A stretch of 64,000 bases of DNA, taken from assembly GCA_041746575.1 (NCBI GenBank), contig JBGTGT010000098.1, forward strand, positions 64,001 through 128,000, in the 5' to 3' direction. Position numbers and translations under genes: made by a program. This DNA is from Microcystaceae cyanobacterium. GTDB lineage: Bacteria > Cyanobacteriota > Cyanobacteriia > Cyanobacteriales > Microcystaceae. A model generated the notes under the pieces. It ran no database searches. It was given only the letters and a program-made list of their open reading frames with translations, and was not told the DNA's origin. Positions 33,046 through 42,221 of this stretch are shown here, in pieces; positions within the stretch are counted from its first letter, which is position 1; each line of letters opens with the position of its first letter.

Positions 33046-34308
33046 TTATAATGACCCATGTTTTTGTGCTAATCGGATAGGTCGGACTAGGTAATATAAA
33101 AAACTGAGAGATTTAGGTAAGCTTAAATAGCTTATATCTTCTTCAGTAGGAGTCATGACTAATCGGCAAAACTGTCCCACTAAATAGCCTTTACTTGTCA
33201 TTTTTTGCAGAGAAGGTTCTCTAAGAAGGCGGAATAAGAAATTTTCTAATATACCTTGAAGGTTTTCTGTACCAGCAAACATTTGCTGACAAACTTTCTC
33301 TCCATATAATTTACTGACTGGATCTGTTTTTATTCGTTGTAAAACTGAGTTGGGTATTTCTGATTTAAAGAGATTTTGGGCTAGAAATAATCCAAGTAGT
33401 AAAATTCGTTCAATTCTTATTTCACTAGCTTGCTTAAAAACGAATTCCCAATTCATTTTGGGATGTAATTGAAGAAGTTCAGCTACATCACAAACCCCTT
33501 TGAGCGATCGCCACTGATCTTTCATGGCGTTAATACAAAGAATTAATAATAAATTTTCCGGCGAAAAACTGAGAATTGTTGTATTAGCAAAAGAAACAGA
33601 ATGAACAGAATTCCACCACCAATTGGAATCCATACTCAAAAAAGATTCCTGTCCCGCCAAGGTCCAATGAATTTCCAAAAAAGCAATCTTATCTTTATTC
33701 GGTTTAAACTTATAATTAAACTGAGAAGGAGAACGAAGAAATTCAGACTCTAGTTCATCCGTTATCCCATATTCTGATAAATATTCATTGTTTCTTTCTA
33801 AGATGAGTAAGGGTTGATAATCTTCTGACATTAGTAGCTCTTTGATTTTTAAAATATCCTTTTTATGAACAATAATATCTAGGTCGCTAATCTGTCGAAG
33901 TGCTAGATTTTTATAAAGTAATAAAGCCAGTACCGGTCCTTTATAGGGAATAGCAGAAATATTATGCTCCTTAAATAAATTGAGTAAATCCATTAATTCT
34001 TTGGCTAAAGATAAATTATGCTGTGCATTGCGATGAAAGAAATTCCGTAGTTGAGAAAAAATCGCCGTAGGAACGTCTTCTGGACAAATAGCATTTAAAC
34101 TATAATATAAGAGCGGCATTACTCCATGATGAGCCGATGTTTTAATCAGGTAAGACCAGTCAATTTCCTGTTTAACTAAGGTTTGAATTCGTTTTTTTGT
34201 GATTAAATCAATCTGAGTTCTGGCGCAACATAATAATAATTCGATTTCAGGGCGGGTTTTTGGAATTAGTTGGCTCGAAAAAAGTTGAAGACTAGAGAAG
34301 GTTTTCAT
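33046..34308 (-). CDS. Nucleotidyltransferase family protein (NTP_transf_5-like, lasso-cluster type)
   Basis: IDW..L...HGVMPL, YKGPVLA..LY....RQISDLDIIV, EIHW, W.SLK..CD, YYLVRPIRL. Confidence 0.88.
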   Translation of the reverse strand: MKTFSSLQLFSSQLIPKTRPEIELLLCCARTQIDLITKKRIQTLVKQEIDWSYLIKTSAHHGVMPLLYYSLNAICPEDVPTAIFSQLRNFFHRNAQHNLSLAKELMDLLNLFKEHNISAIPYKGPVLALLLYKNLALRQISDLDIIVHKKDILKIKELLMSEDYQPLLILERNNEYLSEYGITDELESEFLRSPSQFNYKFKPNKDKIAFLEIHWTLAGQESFLSMDSNWWWNSVHSVSFANTTILSFSPENLLLILCINAMKDQWRSLKGVCDVAELLQLHPKMNWEFVFKQASEIRIERILLLGLFLAQNLFKSEIPNSVLQRIKTDPVSKLYGEKVCQQMFAGTENLQGILENFLFRLLREPSLQKMTSKGYLVGQFCRLVMTPTEEDISYLSLPKSLSFLYYLVRPIRLAQKHGSL

Positions 34309-36173: not shown

Positions 36174-39100
36174 TTATTCCCACAACAAGACAGACGGTAA
36201 TTGGTCAGGATAGGCGAGTCGTAGGAGTTGATACCCAATACCTGATGCACCTTGGAAGAAACCGGGGTGAAAATCGAGAATAGGACCATAACCATAATGG
36301 CCTTTTTGTTCGGCGCGTGCGACGACTTGGGAGGCAAGGTTCATCGCTGCATCCACTAATTCAGGTCGGTTGAGTTTACGTCCAGCAGTGAAGAGAAATT
36401 CAACCCGTCCCATATTGCCACAACAGAGATGATCAATGTCTGAGAGTCCGTAATTAAGCGTTGTGGTGATAGCAGCCTCAATATCTTGGCGAATTTCTGG
36501 GGTATCGAGAATATCTAGGGTGGCAACTCTGGCTAATCCAATTCCGGGCGCACCATGGCACCATGAACACATACATCTCGGGTAATCTTTGGTTTGGGGT
36601 TGTCGAAAATCTGGCCAGTTATTGAGTTCGGGGATAAAAACACTGCGTTCGTAGGCGATCGCTTCTTCTGCTGCTTCTTTATAGCGGTTATCGCCTGTTA
36701 ATTTATAGAGACGAAGTAAAGCATAGGCAATTCCTGCCGCACCATGAGAGAAACCTGTTAAGAGTTTTGTTTGTTTATTTTGGCTAACTTCTGATGTTAA
36801 GTTCATCAACTTCAACTGATTTATAATATGATCGCCATATTTTTTGCACTTTCCTAAAATCTTTTGAGATAAAGTAGTTTTATAAATGCCCAGAAAACTT
36901 AGCATAATACCTGCCACACCTGATATTACATCAAGTCTACTCTGTGTTTCTTCTATAGATACTTGAGATACCTGAGCTATGTTAGTTAAATCATCATAAT
37001 CAGTTGATTTGTAACTTGGCATAAAATTATGAACTAGATTTAATCCATAAGATAGTGAAGAAAATTCAAACAACTCTCCTAGTGAATGAATCTCTACATT
37101 TTCATTCACTATACTTTTATTATTTTTTATTTTAGGTAGAATAGAATTCATTAAGTTCTGAAACTCTAAATTATTATTATTGCCGAGAACGTGATCTAAA
37201 GCGCTCAAGAAAATAGCAATTCCAATTGCTCCATTATACAAATAATTATCAATAGGACGAAATTGAAATTTGTTAATTACTTCAAAATACTTGGGAGCAA
37301 ACCAAGTTGATATTTTATTATTTAGCTTTATTGATTTTTTAAACATACTCTCCTTTATTTTTTGGCATTCTTTCACGAAGATATCGTTATTGAATTGTCT
37401 TAGTGGGATTACACAATAAGAACTTTCTTGAGAAACATTGTTATCTAAATTTTGATCAATTATGAAAGAATCTAAAGCTCCTTTTATGAAATAAATCTGC
37501 TGTTTTATATCGGCTTGATTGATTTTTTTTAACCTCTTAAAAACAAAATTGAAACTGGGTTCTTCAAAAAAATTTGTAGAAATCACTTTATTTCCATTAA
37601 ATAAATGAACACTACCAGAGTCAGTTAAAAATAGAGGAATATCTAATTTTTCTAAGGCTTCTATTTCCAAAGATAATAAAGACCAAGTAGAAGGTTTTTG
37701 CTTAGATTTTAGAAGCTGTTTAGAAAGAGTATCCAAAACTATACTTCTTTCAATTCCATTCTTCATACAACTTGGAGTCAGACCAGCCTCTTCAATAACT
37801 CTATAGATTCTGGTTGGACGTAATATATAACGTATTAGTTGATGAGAAAATTTTGCTAGGATATTATTATGTTTTAACAGGTTATTTTTATGTTTAATAA
37901 ATATATCACACATCTGAGTAAATCCATCTAAGATTAGAGTAGAACATATAGAATGATCTATATTGAGTCTTTGATTTGTTAAAAAAGTATTAGTCAAGTG
38001 AAGAGAGTGAGCGTTAGAAAAACGCAACATTGTATCTGTGTTAACATTTTTAAATTCTGATGTAATTACATAAACTGGTTTTGCATTAAACTCTTGTAAT
38101 GCACCAGAGCTAAAAGATTGTCCATTTTCTGCAGACATCCATATTGGTAATAGTCCAGTACGAAGAACAGACTTTTTGAGAAGATTATAACTAAAACTTT
38201 GAATATTATCTTCCAAGTCTTGAGCATTCTCAAGATTTTTTCTAGGATGCATCAACGTCTCTAAATCAATAATCACTGGATATTCTCCATGACTAATGAT
38301 ATTATCAAAGTGTAAGTCTGTAGCATCTAGTAGATAACTTACTGCTAGTAGCATTCCCATTCTGTGATAGTAATATTCAGCCGATTCTCTTGTTGTGAAA
38401 GCATTGCTTTCAACAAACTCAACCCAGCCATATTCAGGGCGAACTAAAGTTTTAATTATCTTGAATTTTAATATTTGTGTTTTATCATTAAAATATTGTA
38501 ACAACTCAAAAAAAAGACTTTCTAAATTTATATTTTTAGGTTTATAGATTAATTTTAGCCCAGATTGAAAATGAATACACAAAACACTTTTGCCATTTTG
38601 GTGTCTATCTGATAAATCAGTTTCAATATGAACTACTTCTTTTAGTTTATTTTGACTAAATTTTTTTTCTATATCTGACCAATCTTGATCAAGACGTTGG
38701 ATTAATAACATAGTATTATTAATCCACATATTAATCACAGTCACAATTAAACGTGCTAATACTGAATACTCGCAAAAAAAGACTTTTATTCGACGCTTAA
38801 GTAAATCATTGATAAAATTAAAATAATCATCATTTTCATATGTACTTTTTTCTTTTCTTGAGATTATACTAAAAGTAGTTTTTTTGCCTATTTTAAAGAG
38901 GAAAAATTCTAGCTCTAAGGTTCTTTCACTTACTTTTGAAAGTGTTCTAAGTAAGCTTTTTTCTAAGTCAAGATGGGCTGATTGACCGATGATATAATAT
39001 TTTTGACCAATTTTTTCTTTGAGTTGATGTCTAGCAAAATTAATAAAGTGAAGATAAAAATCTTCAAAAGGGAGAGTATTATTATTTCTCTTTTTAATAA

Positions 39101-39446
39101 TTTCCTCTTTCTCATTATAGATAGTTTCCTGAAAAGATACAGATATAAACTCTAAAAGCTCATCAAGAGTTTTCAGCCAATTTGGGATAGTTAAGTTCTC
39201 TACACAATCTTGATAAGTAATCGCATTTCTAACATCTGTTAATTCAAGATTAGACCAAGCTAAGCGACGTCTAAATAGACTCCAATTTCCATTTGTTACC
39301 ACTTGGCACCATTTTTCAATAATAAAATCTGAATTCTTTTGGATTGATTTTTTATTAGTATCTATTATTGATCTATGGGTATTCAGAATTTCATTCAAAG
39401 ATTGGCTGTTTGCAAAAATATGCAAAGTTTCTTCGTAAGATAACAT
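36174..39446 (-). CDS. lanM: Class II lanthipeptide synthetase LanM, CCG type
   Basis: Dehydratase motifs SDRHQNG, YKPK, GWVEFV, TDLHFDN, IDLET, RPTRIY; LanC-like cyclase motifs LYNGAIG, GFSHGAAG, WCHGAPG, LCCG, GFFQGASG; Shine-Dalgarno AAGGAG. Confidence 0.95.
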   Translation of the reverse strand: MLSYEETLHIFANSQSLNEILNTHRSIIDTNKKSIQKNSDFIIEKWCQVVTNGNWSLFRRRLAWSNLELTDVRNAITYQDCVENLTIPNWLKTLDELLEFISVSFQETIYNEKEEIIKKRNNNTLPFEDFYLHFINFARHQLKEKIGQKYYIIGQSAHLDLEKSLLRTLSKVSERTLELEFFLFKIGKKTTFSIISRKEKSTYENDDYFNFINDLLKRRIKVFFCEYSVLARLIVTVINMWINNTMLLIQRLDQDWSDIEKKFSQNKLKEVVHIETDLSDRHQNGKSVLCIHFQSGLKLIYKPKNINLESLFFELLQYFNDKTQILKFKIIKTLVRPEYGWVEFVESNAFTTRESAEYYYHRMGMLLAVSYLLDATDLHFDNIISHGEYPVIIDLETLMHPRKNLENAQDLEDNIQSFSYNLLKKSVLRTGLLPIWMSAENGQSFSSGALQEFNAKPVYVITSEFKNVNTDTMLRFSNAHSLHLTNTFLTNQRLNIDHSICSTLILDGFTQMCDIFIKHKNNLLKHNNILAKFSHQLIRYILRPTRIYRVIEEAGLTPSCMKNGIERSIVLDTLSKQLLKSKQKPSTWSLLSLEIEALEKLDIPLFLTDSGSVHLFNGNKVISTNFFEEPSFNFVFKRLKKINQADIKQQIYFIKGALDSFIIDQNLDNNVSQESSYCVIPLRQFNNDIFVKECQKIKESMFKKSIKLNNKISTWFAPKYFEVINKFQFRPIDNYLYNGAIGIAIFLSALDHVLGNNNNLEFQNLMNSILPKIKNNKSIVNENVEIHSLGELFEFSSLSYGLNLVHNFMPSYKSTDYDDLTNIAQVSQVSIEETQSRLDVISGVAGIMLSFLGIYKTTLSQKILGKCKKYGDHIINQLKLMNLTSEVSQNKQTKLLTGFSHGAAGIAYALLRLYKLTGDNRYKEAAEEAIAYERSVFIPELNNWPDFRQPQTKDYPRCMCSWCHGAPGIGLARVATLDILDTPEIRQDIEAAITTTLNYGLSDIDHLCCGNMGRVEFLFTAGRKLNRPELVDAAMNLASQVVARAEQKGHYGYGPILDFHPGFFQGASGIGYQLLRLAYPDQLPSVLLWE

Positions 39447-39562: not shown

Positions 39563-40255
39563 CTAACATATATAATTGTTTGTGCTTGCACAGAATATCG
39601 TGTCCATTAGAGAATCATCCCCAATAATTCCGCAACCAGAAACTTCTACACTATATGTTAAGCTTGATAAGGACTGAAGATAAATAGATAAACTAGGGAT
39701 AAAAGGATTAGGTAAAATCACAAATATTTTATCAGTTTTTTCTTCAAAAATCTTGATAAAAATATTTTGCGAAAGTTCAAGAGTTAGATAAGCTTTTATT
39801 GTTTTTAGTGGCTCTCGAATTAGCCGATCTTTTAAATCTCTATTTCTCCAACAATTAGTAATTAATTGTATAGCATGGTTACTATCTACTACAGTATTTC
39901 GTTGCTGATCCAAAACCCAGCGAGCAACATCCTCATAAGTCATCCCTAAAGCGGCTTGTAATTGCTCTTCAGACATTCCCTCATAAGGATTACAAGGTAA
40001 CACCATATAAATCGTATCTTCTGTTTCCTCAAGTACCTGAATCTCAAGGTCTTCTGGTAATTTTTGGTCTAATTCTTGTTCAATTACTGCTTTAGGATTT
40101 GCTAATAACTCCTGTTTAAAGTCTTCATCTTTTAAAGCACGAGTAATCAGATGAATTTCTAAATCTTTGCGAGTTTGTAAAGCTAACTGAGAATTTGGTT
40201 TAAACTGAAAAGACCATAGGGGTAAGTTGGGGTTCATGCTTTCATGAGTATTCAT
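39563..40255 (-). CDS. NHLP (nitrile-hydratase-like leader) RiPP precursor with two leader domains
   Basis: RKDLEIHLITRALKDEDFKQELLANPK...VLEETEDTIYMVLP, then a second copy LITNCWRNRDLKDRLIREP...FEEKTDKIFVILP; Ser/Thr/Cys C-terminal tail; Shine-Dalgarno AGGAG. Confidence 0.88.
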   Translation of the reverse strand: MNTHESMNPNLPLWSFQFKPNSQLALQTRKDLEIHLITRALKDEDFKQELLANPKAVIEQELDQKLPEDLEIQVLEETEDTIYMVLPCNPYEGMSEEQLQAALGMTYEDVARWVLDQQRNTVVDSNHAIQLITNCWRNRDLKDRLIREPLKTIKAYLTLELSQNIFIKIFEEKTDKIFVILPNPFIPSLSIYLQSLSSLTYSVEVSGCGIIGDDSLMDTIFCASTNNYIC

Positions 40256-40273: not shown

Positions 40274-40657
40274 TTAGTGAAGTTGTTTGCGTTTTTTGAG
40301 AATTTTATTTCCGGCGAAAATAGAGCCAATTACCATTAAGCCAAAGATAGAAGAAGGTTCAGGAATACAAATTGTCTTATCGTCTTGTATATCATCTGAT
40401 GTGAAATCAGTAACCCCTAAGATTTTCAGAGGTTTGCCATTTTGTCCTCGACAATAATAGACTTTATCGCCATCTCCGATATCTTCTTCCTCAAATGCTC
40501 CTCTTTGAGCAAAACAAGTGAACGCAAATTCTTCAAGTGTAAAGCCCTGAGTTGCATAGGCCAATGGATGACTAAATACCAGCATTGCTATTGTAGATAA
40601 GAGAAAGAATCGATAATTATTGCGAATATGACGAATGACTAACATAATAAAAACCAT
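40274..40657 (-). CDS. Small PEP-CTERM protein
   Basis: Signal peptide ending AYA; IPEPSS, then TM helix and KKRKQLH tail; exact start uncertain. Confidence 0.85.
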   Translation of the reverse strand: MVFIMLVIRHIRNNYRFFLLSTIAMLVFSHPLAYATQGFTLEEFAFTCFAQRGAFEEEDIGDGDKVYYCRGQNGKPLKILGVTDFTSDDIQDDKTICIPEPSSIFGLMVIGSIFAGNKILKKRKQLH

Positions 40658-41115
40658 CCCTTTTTTTGCTCACCGTCAATCGCTGATAAAGGAACTCGAA
40701 TATATCGAGCCATATTCCCTGCACCACCGATAATGACTTTCCCTTCGTATTCTACCCACGCATGGGCTGACATTTTCCCTTTTGGATGTCGGGTAAACCC
40801 AATACAAAGGTCAGGTGAATAACCCCGTTCTTCTAATAGCAATTGAGTCGCTAATGCACGTGCTAAACATCTAATTTTTCGTACATAGTGACTCGCAGTT
40901 CTCACTGTCCATAACACCCTATCTATCTCCACAGAAGCTTGCTCTGCATCGTATAATTTAGGGTTAGACGGAAAGACTTTCGCTAAAAGAAAACGTAACC
41001 TTTGAAAAGGTAAAAACTTCAGTCCGACTCGAATACTTCCTAGTAAAATAAACGCCTTAATCAGCAACAATTTTTCCGAGAAAGTGAGTTGTAGAAACTT
41101 AAGTAGCCTTTTCAT
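40639..41115 (-). CDS. Lasso peptide biosynthesis B2-type protease (transglutaminase-like)
   Basis: LKFLPFQRL, CLARALA (catalytic Cys), IGF, AHAWVE..GKVIIG; ATG at 41115 or TTG at 41121. Confidence 0.9.
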   Translation of the reverse strand: MKRLLKFLQLTFSEKLLLIKAFILLGSIRVGLKFLPFQRLRFLLAKVFPSNPKLYDAEQASVEIDRVLWTVRTASHYVRKIRCLARALATQLLLEERGYSPDLCIGFTRHPKGKMSAHAWVEYEGKVIIGGAGNMARYIRVPLSAIDGEQKKGWFLLC

Positions 41116-41337
41116 GTTCAATGAGTCTTGGTGAATCGCTTCTACTTATTACTCGGAAACAGTCACTGACTTTGTGACGCCTTCCGTTAAAGTTGTTACA
41201 AAACTCAACAATTTATAGCCGACAGAATAACAAAACAACCCCTGCAAAAGACGTTGCTAAGTAGGGGAGGAACAAGCAATCATTAAAAATCAAAGAAAAT
41301 ACCGTCTTTTGCCACTGATGAAGTATTTGATTGATGG

Positions 41338-41397
41338 TAGGGGTGCAAGGTTTGCGCCCAAAGTGCAAGGTTTGCGCCCAAAATGCAAGGTTTACGC
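41338..41397 (+). repeat. Three tandem 20-bp REP-like repeats
   Basis: gggtgcaaggtttgcgccca / aagtgcaaggtttgcgccca / aaatgcaaggtttacgc, preceded by gtag. Confidence 0.85.
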
Positions 41398-42221
41398 TAA
41401 TTATTAATGATTGTATTTAAGCTTTTTAAAAGAGTTTCGAGGGGAATTGCCCAACTATATTGACTCATCTCTTGTTTTTCCGTTAAGGATGCCCGTGTTC
41501 CGTCTGTAAACACATAAGGATTCCCCCACAGCGGATATTTATGAATGCCGTTAATGCCAATAATTTCGCCAAATTGATTAAATAGCGCACCACCGCTCAT
41601 GCCTTTTCGTACCGTACTCGTATAGCCAATTTGATAACCTCCCGCAAAGGGTTTAGGACTCCATTGACTGATAATTCCCGGATTGAGGACGAATTGCCCC
41701 CTAGAATCTCCATCATCCTCTACGGGAAACCCTGCCGCAAATACCGGTTCACCCCTTTGTGGTTGACTTGAAACGAATAAAGACGCAACCGAATAGGAGA
41801 GAGGACTGGTAAAAGTGACTAGGGCTAAATCTTGATCTCGAAAATTAACGTTTTTTAGGACATTTGCCGGATGAACTTGACCGTCGGGGGTGACGATTCG
41901 ATAATTTTGTTGAGGTTCACCATAAATCATAACATGACGATTTGTTACGACCATATAACGGTTACCCCTTTGTTGAATAATAATCCCTGATCCCCACGTT
42001 TGGCCGGATAAGACTTTGACAGTTACCCTTCTGGCGGTTTGATAAATCTCATTCTGCTCAAATATAGGGGGGAATCGTGGGGAGGGAGAGGTTAAAGAAC
42101 GGGATGGAAACGGTTCATCCATTGGCGTATCGCTAAAATCAAGGGGTTCTTCAATCGCACACCCCGGATTGAAAGATAAAAACGACCAACCCATGAGGAA
42201 TAAAACCTTTTGCCATTTCAT
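41397..42221 (-). CDS. Trypsin-like (S1C/Trypsin_2) secreted serine protease
   Basis: Signal peptide; GSG, VTNRHV, DLA, GFP, GMSGG, IGING. Confidence 0.92.
   Translation of the reverse strand: MKWQKVLFLMGWSFLSFNPGCAIEEPLDFSDTPMDEPFPSRSLTSPSPRFPPIFEQNEIYQTARRVTVKVLSGQTWGSGIIIQQRGNRYMVVTNRHVMIYGEPQQNYRIVTPDGQVHPANVLKNVNFRDQDLALVTFTSPLSYSVASLFVSSQPQRGEPVFAAGFPVEDDGDSRGQFVLNPGIISQWSPKPFAGGYQIGYTSTVRKGMSGGALFNQFGEIIGINGIHKYPLWGNPYVFTDGTRASLTEKQEMSQYSWAIPLETLLKSLNTIINN

Follow-up and report, generated by a model that had tools for sequence, protein, structure and literature searches.

NHLP lanthipeptides are freed from their leaders at a Gly-Gly site by C39 transporters, and B2-type (C96) proteases belong to lasso peptides and need an RRE, according to the accessible parts of PMC10885120; the requirement of characterised B2 proteases for an RRE in efficient cleavage is also stated in the available portion of PMC10368454. 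Departures from the usual NHLP architecture are known. Fused tandem NHLP-Burk precursors occur in Delftia and Acidovorax (PMC2887384 and PMC4603692, as far as accessible), and NHLPs without a double-glycine site have been described (PMC12636437, in its accessible parts). The cassette described here is a conserved hybrid of a lanthipeptide system and a lasso-type protease that is apparently undescribed: the combination of a tandem NHLP with B2 and LanM was not found in the accessible literature, including PMC7268733 and PMC7470986 searched by term, and survey tables or supplements may list such loci.

The window, the whole 64,000-nucleotide stretch of Microcystaceae cyanobacterium DNA that was analysed, contains a cassette of six genes, all on the minus strand and all open and full-length (Table 1). 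A region of 10 kb around the precursor gene is identical in three Logan assemblies, which may be its source. The sequencing runs listed as containing the region are four DNA runs from one study, three of them possibly the source, with no RNA run among them. The genome assembly is 99.78% complete in 134 contigs and holds a single NHLP gene, that of the precursor.

Table 1. Features of the tandem-NHLP cassette, in positions of the window; aa, residues of the precursor
Feature	Position	Strand	Basis
Lasso-type B2 (transglutaminase-like) cysteine protease, RRE-less, with C-terminal Trp extension	40639..41121	(-)	NF033537 109 bits, PF13471
Small PEP-CTERM-type protein, 127 aa, accessory, between B2 and precursor	40274..40657	(-)	TIGR02595 21 bits, cut-off 16
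Tandem-NHLP RiPP precursor, 230 aa	39563..40255	(-)	open frame; TIGR03793
N-terminal extension, family-specific, LPLWS motif (aa 8-27)	40175..40234	(-)	modal-residue frequency 0.84, 120 rows
NHLP domain 1, near-invariant (aa 28-87)	39995..40174	(-)	83.5 bits TIGR03793; modal frequency 0.87
Linker (aa 88-124): relic leader-end helix without Gly-Gly, and conserved Trp helix	39884..39994	(-)	GG/GA/GS in 0/120
NHLP domain 2, variable (aa 125-182)	39710..39883	(-)	30.4 bits; modal frequency 0.57
Leader tail and candidate cleavage zone (aa 183-212)	39620..39709	(-)	cut near S206/G207/C208 or after G212; degenerate against family motif
Putative core with 2-3 Cys and 4 Ser/Thr (longest reading aa 207-230, shortest aa 213-230)	39566..39637	(-)	
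Class II lanthionine synthetase LanM, 1090 aa, CCG-type cyclase	36174..39446	(-)	TIGR03897 808.6 bits
ABC exporter without C39 peptidase domain, 622 aa	34315..36183	(-)	PF00664, PF00005, no PF03412
NTP_transf_5 nucleotidyltransferase, 420 aa, lasso-cluster type	33046..34308	(-)	PF14907 195.9 bits

The LanM keeps the dehydratase motifs and the motifs of a CCG-type cyclase; one dehydratase motif carries Asp, compared to Glu in 12 relatives. The exporter matches TIGR03796 from model position 162 onward only, and the nucleotidyltransferase shows 38% identity to one that lies beside an RRE-B2 pair in another locus, L064. The small PEP-CTERM-type gene overlaps the end of the B2 gene by 19 bases. Among 28 loci its frame has an ortholog (56% identical) at the same place in L001 only, and the comparison with the Atlas returned leads under 0.9 only; the PEP-CTERM-like genes that follow the cassette on its downstream side in L017 and L040 are unrelated to it. 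Just upstream of the cassette lies a gene for a trypsin-like protease at 41397-42221, for which no full-length ortholog was matched in the other loci listed. Inspection by eye of the ORFs of at least 20 aa gave no candidate for a second, small precursor beside LanM or B2, and a scan for promoters and terminators did not rise clearly over chance (41 compared to 31.6 +/- 5.1, and 6 compared to 5.1).

The last ~200 codons of the LanM gene (36174-36770) share 90-100% protein identity with L001, compared to 18-55% in the rest of LanM. This 3' block has a GC content of 0.47 against 0.28, and its identity pattern is uncorrelated with that of the remaining cassette. The sequence pattern suggests that recombination swaps a block reaching from precursor domain 2 to the middle of LanM between conserved arms. 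At the upstream edge of the cassette (41343-41402), two exact copies and one degenerate copy of a 20-nt sequence form a tandem repeat, and sequence similar to ~41316-41365 recurs within the same runs on several further contigs.

The precursor was initially annotated as a protein of 230 aa with two NHLP-like domains, and this holds: TIGR03793 matches the whole protein in 2 stretches with 108.6 bits, above the cut-off of 50.9, and the profiles of the two family halves align with an HHalign probability of 99.8% over 56 columns. Scored apart, residues 28-101 reach 83.5 bits and residues ~129-183 reach 30.4 bits, so the second domain alone falls below the cut-off; the two matches foreseen for a scan with the NHLP model are thus present as stretches of one hit, and the second does not stand on its own. 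The TIGR03795 (NHLP-Burk) model gives 41.2 bits for residues 34-85, with a cut-off of 41. The nitrile hydratase alpha family model yields 42.8 bits, far below its cut-off of 249.85, and the metal-binding motif CxxCSC is absent from the precursor sequence. A double-glycine cleavage site had been reported missing, and indeed the five Gly-X pairs of the precursor are GM, GM, GC, GI and GD, with none of GG, GA or GS. The linker of the initial annotation begins at residue 87 and its C-terminal stretch at residue 201. The relic of a leader-end motif that it placed after domain 1 is borne out by the family, in which this segment never carries GG, GA or GS (Table 1). The proposed core of 22-23 aa also agrees with the sequence, since a core starting at residue 208 is 23 aa long and has 3 Cys and 4 Ser/Thr, and one starting at residue 209 is 22 aa long and has 2 Cys. 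Reading the N-terminal extension as a lasso leader, with Thr28 as the Thr at -2, was considered and dropped because TIGR03793 itself begins at residue 28 and no fixed Thr is found near the leader end.

AlphaFold2 with 94 diverse rows predicts a structure with an N-terminal β-hairpin, two NHLP folds linked by two helices and a disordered tail (pLDDT 84.1, pTM 0.74). The predicted hairpin strands span residues 15-19 and 23-27, and the predicted linker helices residues 96-103 and 107-116. Modelling on close homologs only gives pLDDT 67.7 and pTM 0.51 with the extension unresolved, and a fold search with that model returns nothing at E<=0.001. The deeper model superposes on both halves of the nitrile hydratase alpha subunit (VIA-align Z 8.0, rmsd 4.5 A over 128 residues; Foldseek E 5e-5), and the intramolecular pseudo-dimer initially proposed is therefore predicted by the model. 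Fold searches with the whole model, inside which alone the first half was searched, list nitrile hydratases and NHLP structures and no RRE fold.

The precursor is a member of a conserved family with a conserved cassette, not a one-off. At least 180 homologs at E<=0.001 are present among 350 candidates, the named ones cyanobacterial, and a profile search of 50% representatives adds further, more distant full-length members. The frequency of the modal residue among the 120 homologs listed is 0.84-0.87 in the N-terminal extension, domain 1 and linker, 0.57 in domain 2 and 0.41 in the tail. Among the best 150 rows, a canonical GG leader end is found in 0/42 proteins with the N-terminal Trp motif compared to 22/68 other long NHLP proteins, 14 of these 22 having at least 2 repeats by a crude pattern count. 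This indicates that the family bearing the extension lost GG, while other tandem NHLPs often keep it. Four proteins (P0138, P0147, P0166 and P0171) contain four NHLP-matching stretches each, with the GG leader end kept in P0138 and P0147. Three others (P0004, P0038 and P0142) have a short Cys-bearing tail that continues into a Peptidase_S74 (endosialidase chaperone) domain and a coiled coil; a RiPP precursor with an autocleaving follower of this kind would be out of the ordinary. A search for proteins that combine the extension with one domain gave 6 matches: four look like truncated members of the family, and the other two are ordinary NHLPs of the GG type. No longer fusions (404-2000 aa) were seen among 1093 candidates, a search of little weight, and plasmid records gave 4 weak matches, none covering >80% of the query. 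With this genome included, the family occurs in 1/401 genomes of a phylum sample, in 4/401 of an order sample and in 1/89 of its own taxonomic family; the frequencies in three other families are 2/20, 5/389 and 2/144. The one scan made of genome contigs gave a single locus. Going by its occurrence, the family is rare and scattered, a distribution that would fit a mobile cassette.

The gene neighborhood was compared over 28 loci, comprising the window, L001, 17 metagenome contigs and 9 genome regions; these cassette loci are kin and do not count as independent trials. A B2 sequence lies directly upstream of the precursor in 27 of the 28, the exception being L013, whose contig ends 133 bp upstream; in L004 and L009 the contig edge leaves just the end of B2, and in L019 a B2 remnant of 38 codons is all that lies upstream. 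Over the 11 long genome-derived loci, which represent 5 families, B2 is intact in all 11, LanM and the nucleotidyltransferase are each present in 10, the exporter is found in 7 with remnants in 2 more (L024 and L035), and an RRE is found in 2. The RRE is encoded separately ahead of B2 in L003, L010, L016 and L040, is fused to B2 in L017 and L018 and is broken in L005, L011 and L012; the window contains none. No C39 transporter was seen in the 28 loci. Since neither these loci nor the genome contain a lasso cyclase homolog, B2 is without another local class of substrate. In the genome, homologs of two lasso-type cyclases were searched for and not found, and the sole PF00733 match is a 241-aa frame. 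This frame resembles QueC.

One locus separates the partners of the cassette. L025 (6079-12196) has neither LanM nor cyclase, and besides B2 it contains a tandem NHLP of 300 aa whose tail is acidic and free of Cys; PqqD, a 280-aa frame without a Pfam match and NTP_transf_5 follow downstream, with an AMP-binding enzyme alongside. The 280-aa frame is read as a kinase by its position. Because B2 and the tandem NHLP persist here in the absence of LanM, the link of the precursor to B2 appears tighter than that to LanM. Further variants concern the number of precursors and the state of LanM. L035 (9385-11950) contains three tandem paralogous precursors behind one B2, with first halves 80-86% identical, tails 5-23% identical and one tail Cys-free, and L009 contains two precursors. 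In L036 (10541-13807), the zinc motifs of the LanM cyclase are altered (WSHG, CNG), and the core of the adjoining precursor still has three Cys.

The B2 protease looks intact, under purifying selection and adapted to the cassette, as judged from its sequences. All 25 rows compared share Cys85, His120 and Glu124, and dN lies well below dS, RRE-less loci included (e.g., 0.07/0.30 and 0.16/0.61). A C-terminal extension of the Trp-x-Leu-Phe type is found in 22/22 full-length cassette B2s compared to 0/21 others from one cyanobacterial family, most of which, among those listed, lie between an RRE and a cyclase-like gene. The nearest relatives, 43-45% identical, belong to cyanobacterial lasso-type clusters (L042-L044). 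In a tree with long branches and an unsure root, three B2s of lasso clusters fall among those of the cassette (3 changes), which leaves a single origin of the latter unsupported. One of the B2s nearest to those of the cassette comes from L064 (5683-8988), where it is accompanied by an RRE, a short lasso-like precursor, a kinase-like frame and NTP_transf_5; within 18 kb no ORF resembling a cyclase was recognised. The description of the window's B2 as RRE-less is correct and extends to the whole genome, in which no PqqD/RRE family match is found.

The leader ends of the family were compared in 98 tails, obtained from 120 by leaving one out as too short and reducing the rest at 70% similarity. 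The family leader end consists of a hydrophobic run followed by Gly/Ala and then Ser, with the consensus NMPMVIGS. The pairs at this position are GS in 43 tails, AS in 10, GC in 8, GA in 5 and GG in 5, and for 71 of the 98 tails the score exceeds the 95th percentile obtained with shuffled tails. With the cut read after Gly/Ala, 72/97 tails have Ile/Val/Ala/Thr before and Gly/Ser/Cys/Ala after it, a count that is partly circular because the motif finder was seeded to permit I/V/A/L/M before G/A. Leu and Met take that seeded position in just 5/97 tails, though no residue is more common upstream than Leu. In 48 distant rows counted by alignment column, with no seed, Ile/Val/Ala stand there in 40. 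The YxxPxL leader motif and the Thr at -2 were not found: no fixed Thr occurs around the leader end, where Ile/Val/Ala stand instead. Lasso cores carry small residues at +1. On sequence grounds the family leader end (Ile/Val/Ala, Gly/Ala, Ser) fits B2 specificity; cleavage by a B2 with Ile at -2 has been shown and Ile/Val/Ala at -2 predicted in the accessible text of PMC10368454. Cys together with Ser/Thr is present in 94/98 family cores, and over 13 loci the tail identity is 0.18 compared to 0.78 for the first half.

The candidate cleavage site of the precursor itself is degenerate and ambiguous, lying in the VSGC region or at G212. In a leave-one-out scoring with the family motif, all positions of the precursor are below 0 (G212 -0.9, A223 -1.7, G207 -4.3, S206 -4.6); the best value resembles that of a shuffled tail (median -0.1), and 4/98 family tails, the precursor included, score as low. 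Two alignments place G212 (IIG-D) in the family Gly column. A Cys just before the site is rare (3/97 tails), which favours VSGC, the leader end named in the initial annotation; that proposal thus stands as one of two candidates. Depending on the choice, the leader has roughly 206-212 residues and the core 18-24 aa.

The explanation held to be moderately probable is that the cassette makes a class II lanthipeptide, in which LanM likely introduces rings into the tail and B2 likely cuts the leader at a site other than Gly-Gly before export by a transporter without a peptidase. LanM would bind domain 2 and form (methyl)lanthionine rings in the Cys/Ser/Thr tail. Domain 2, situated beside the core and changing along with LanM, would be the handle for this enzyme, and domain 1 with the hairpin would be the handle for B2, standing in for the lost RRE. 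B2 may then cut after the Gly/Ala of the family motif, with Ile/Val/Ala at -2 replacing the Thr of lasso leaders, and the ABC exporter would secrete the product after leader removal. The nucleotidyltransferase may attach a further modification. In its make-up, the cassette looks like the accessory genes of a lasso cluster (RRE, B2, exporter and nucleotidyltransferase), with the tandem NHLP and LanM put in the place of precursor and cyclase. This explanation is favoured because of the near-constant position of B2 upstream of the precursor, the invariant catalytic residues, the private extension and a genome in which no C39 transporter scores over the cut-off. It is weakened because characterised B2s need an RRE, yet 9 of the 11 long loci and this genome have none, and because 53/97 tails end the leader in GG, GA or GS (mostly GS, with strict GG in 5/97) and NHLP C39 transporters are encoded elsewhere in 7/10 other cassette genomes.

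The assignment of the two handles draws on partial Mantel correlations over 13 loci. Domain 1 gives 0.45 with B2 and -0.16 with LanM, the whole first half 0.62 with B2 when LanM is held fixed and 0.0 with LanM, and domain 2 gives 0.72 with LanM and 0.07 with B2. Domain 1 thus appears to co-vary with B2 and domain 2 with LanM, a pattern that chromosomal adjacency and shared base composition could also yield; with that reservation, it lends indirect support to the initial proposal that the duplicated leader may dock two enzymes. A predicted complex of the precursor (A1) with B2 (A2) scores 0.01 against a mark of 0.32, a value that counts neither way on binding. An NHLP-specific LanM requires the folded NHLP, and two Trp side chains have been modelled as inserted into the NHLP core (PMC12537861, accessible portion); by analogy, and as speculation, the invariant Trp at the B2 end might insert likewise into domain 1. 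A more far-reaching possibility, advanced tentatively, is that the tandem leader is a two-handle adaptor. Here, the hairpin and domain 1 would replace the RRE and activate the RRE-less B2, and domain 2 would be exchanged together with the maturase, which is LanM in the window, the kinase and nucleotidyltransferase in L025 and an S74-fused tail in P0004, P0038 and P0142.

An alternative in which LanM modifies the tail and B2 does not cut is judged unlikely. B2 would then be a binding or chaperone partner or a passenger, with the precursor exported whole or trimmed by a general protease. The missing RRE in most loci speaks for it, B2s normally needing one, as do the trypsin-like gene upstream of the cassette and NHLP precursors known without a double-glycine site or a local protease, whose full-length form is reported in lysates (PMC12636437, as far as available). 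The invariant catalytic Cys, His and Glu and the purifying selection on B2 argue against it, and so does the conserved boundary of hydrophobic residue, Gly/Ala and Ser at the start of the hypervariable tail; the trypsin-like gene, for its part, is without a matched full-length counterpart in the other loci listed.

It is quite improbable that the family works as in the favoured explanation while the copy in the window decays, with its RRE lost, its motif eroded and little or no product formed. The low site score, the RRE missing from the genome and the Asp in the LanM dehydratase motif are consistent with decay, and erosion is visible in other loci as the broken RREs and the ABC remnants listed above. 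The six full-length frames, the retained Cys and Ser/Thr of the core and the fact that RRE-less loci form the majority, with B2 still under selection, speak against it.

Cleavage by a C39 peptidase in trans bears on the initial claim of non-canonical processing. GG, GA and GS are all counted as double-glycine-like and canonical, and C39 reads the leader stretch as a helix, in the accessible parts of PMC10885120; the C39 pattern with hydrophobic residues at -4/-7/-12 is given in those of PMC12537861. Non-canonical processing is supported for this genome, which contains no NHLP C39 transporter (TIGR03796 over the cut-off), and less so for the family, about half of which ends the leader in GG, GA or GS. 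Two weak C39 matches occur in the genome, a 1026-aa exporter and an unlinked, stand-alone 171-aa frame (G000:C122:44691-45206) with Cys and His and no transporter part. The matched stretch of the exporter presumably lacks the usual catalytic Cys. It is very doubtful that Gly-Ser serves as a double-glycine-like site for a C39 peptidase whose gene lies elsewhere, since, for all the 43/98 GS leader ends, the C39 transporters of other cassette genomes and the Cys-bearing 171-aa frame, the precursor has no GG, GA or GS, no NHLP C39 transporter scores over the cut-off here or matches at 1e-150 in G1208 and G600, the full pattern of -4/-7/-12 with GG/GA/GS fits 14/95 tails, Pro occurs in the stretch read as helix in 37/95, and the fixed pairing with B2 is left unexplained.

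A family in which LanM is paired with B2, in most cases with no RRE, would add to the known routes of leader removal. The system would allow a direct test of B2 activation and of the purpose of large folded NHLP leaders, the two handles being separately deletable or swappable. About a hundred distinct, unexplored Cys-rich cores are contained in the family, which finders tuned to short leaders or to Gly-Gly leaders likely miss. Should the tentative two-handle arrangement be true, the leader would serve as a portable chassis for RiPPs, the lanthipeptide route would be the first to rely on a C96 protease for cleavage, and its B2 would work independently of an RRE. The interest lies chiefly with RiPP specialists.

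Judged by its gene content, the cassette resembles an NHLP class II lanthipeptide system but lacks two defining features of one, the Gly-Gly site and the C39 transporter; nor is it a lasso cluster. The NHLP class II clusters, such as the Nostoc NHLP-LanM systems (PMC2887384) and DprE/DprM and OspA/OspM (PMC12537861), share with it, in the accessible descriptions, an NHLP-fold leader, a hypervariable Cys/Ser/Thr core and an adjacent LanM with a three-Cys zinc site. Their leaders of ~87 aa contrast with the long leader here, made of two NHLP domains and a hairpin, and B2, a plain ABC exporter and a nucleotidyltransferase take the place of Gly-Gly and the C39 transporter. The PflA/PosA precursors (PMC12636437, accessible part) likewise combine an NHLP leader without Gly-Gly with a cluster free of C39, but have a single leader, HEXXH and MNIO enzymes and no protease gene nearby. 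Lasso clusters with kinase and nucleotidyltransferase, e.g., bsf (PMC10368454, as far as available), have B2, NTP_transf_5 and the exporter in common with the cassette and, in some loci, the RRE directly before B2. In contrast to them, the cassette has no cyclase and no short lasso precursor, and the RRE is usually missing; the predicted substrate of its B2, which bears the private C-terminal extension, is a folded precursor of 230 aa. The nitrile hydratase alpha subunit, both halves of which are overlaid by the model, differs from the precursor in its CxxCSC metal-binding motif. The NHLP-Burk (TIGR03795) pairs, going by the portions of the literature available, are alike in having two NHLP-related units per chain and no canonical ELSDEELxxVAGG end. 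They lie beside cyclodehydratases in Burkholderiales and contain a 15-aa insert, whereas B2 and LanM are the neighbours of the tandem NHLP here. Tandem NHLPs in themselves are already known, and the distinctive feature of the cassette is the fixed pairing with a lasso-type B2.
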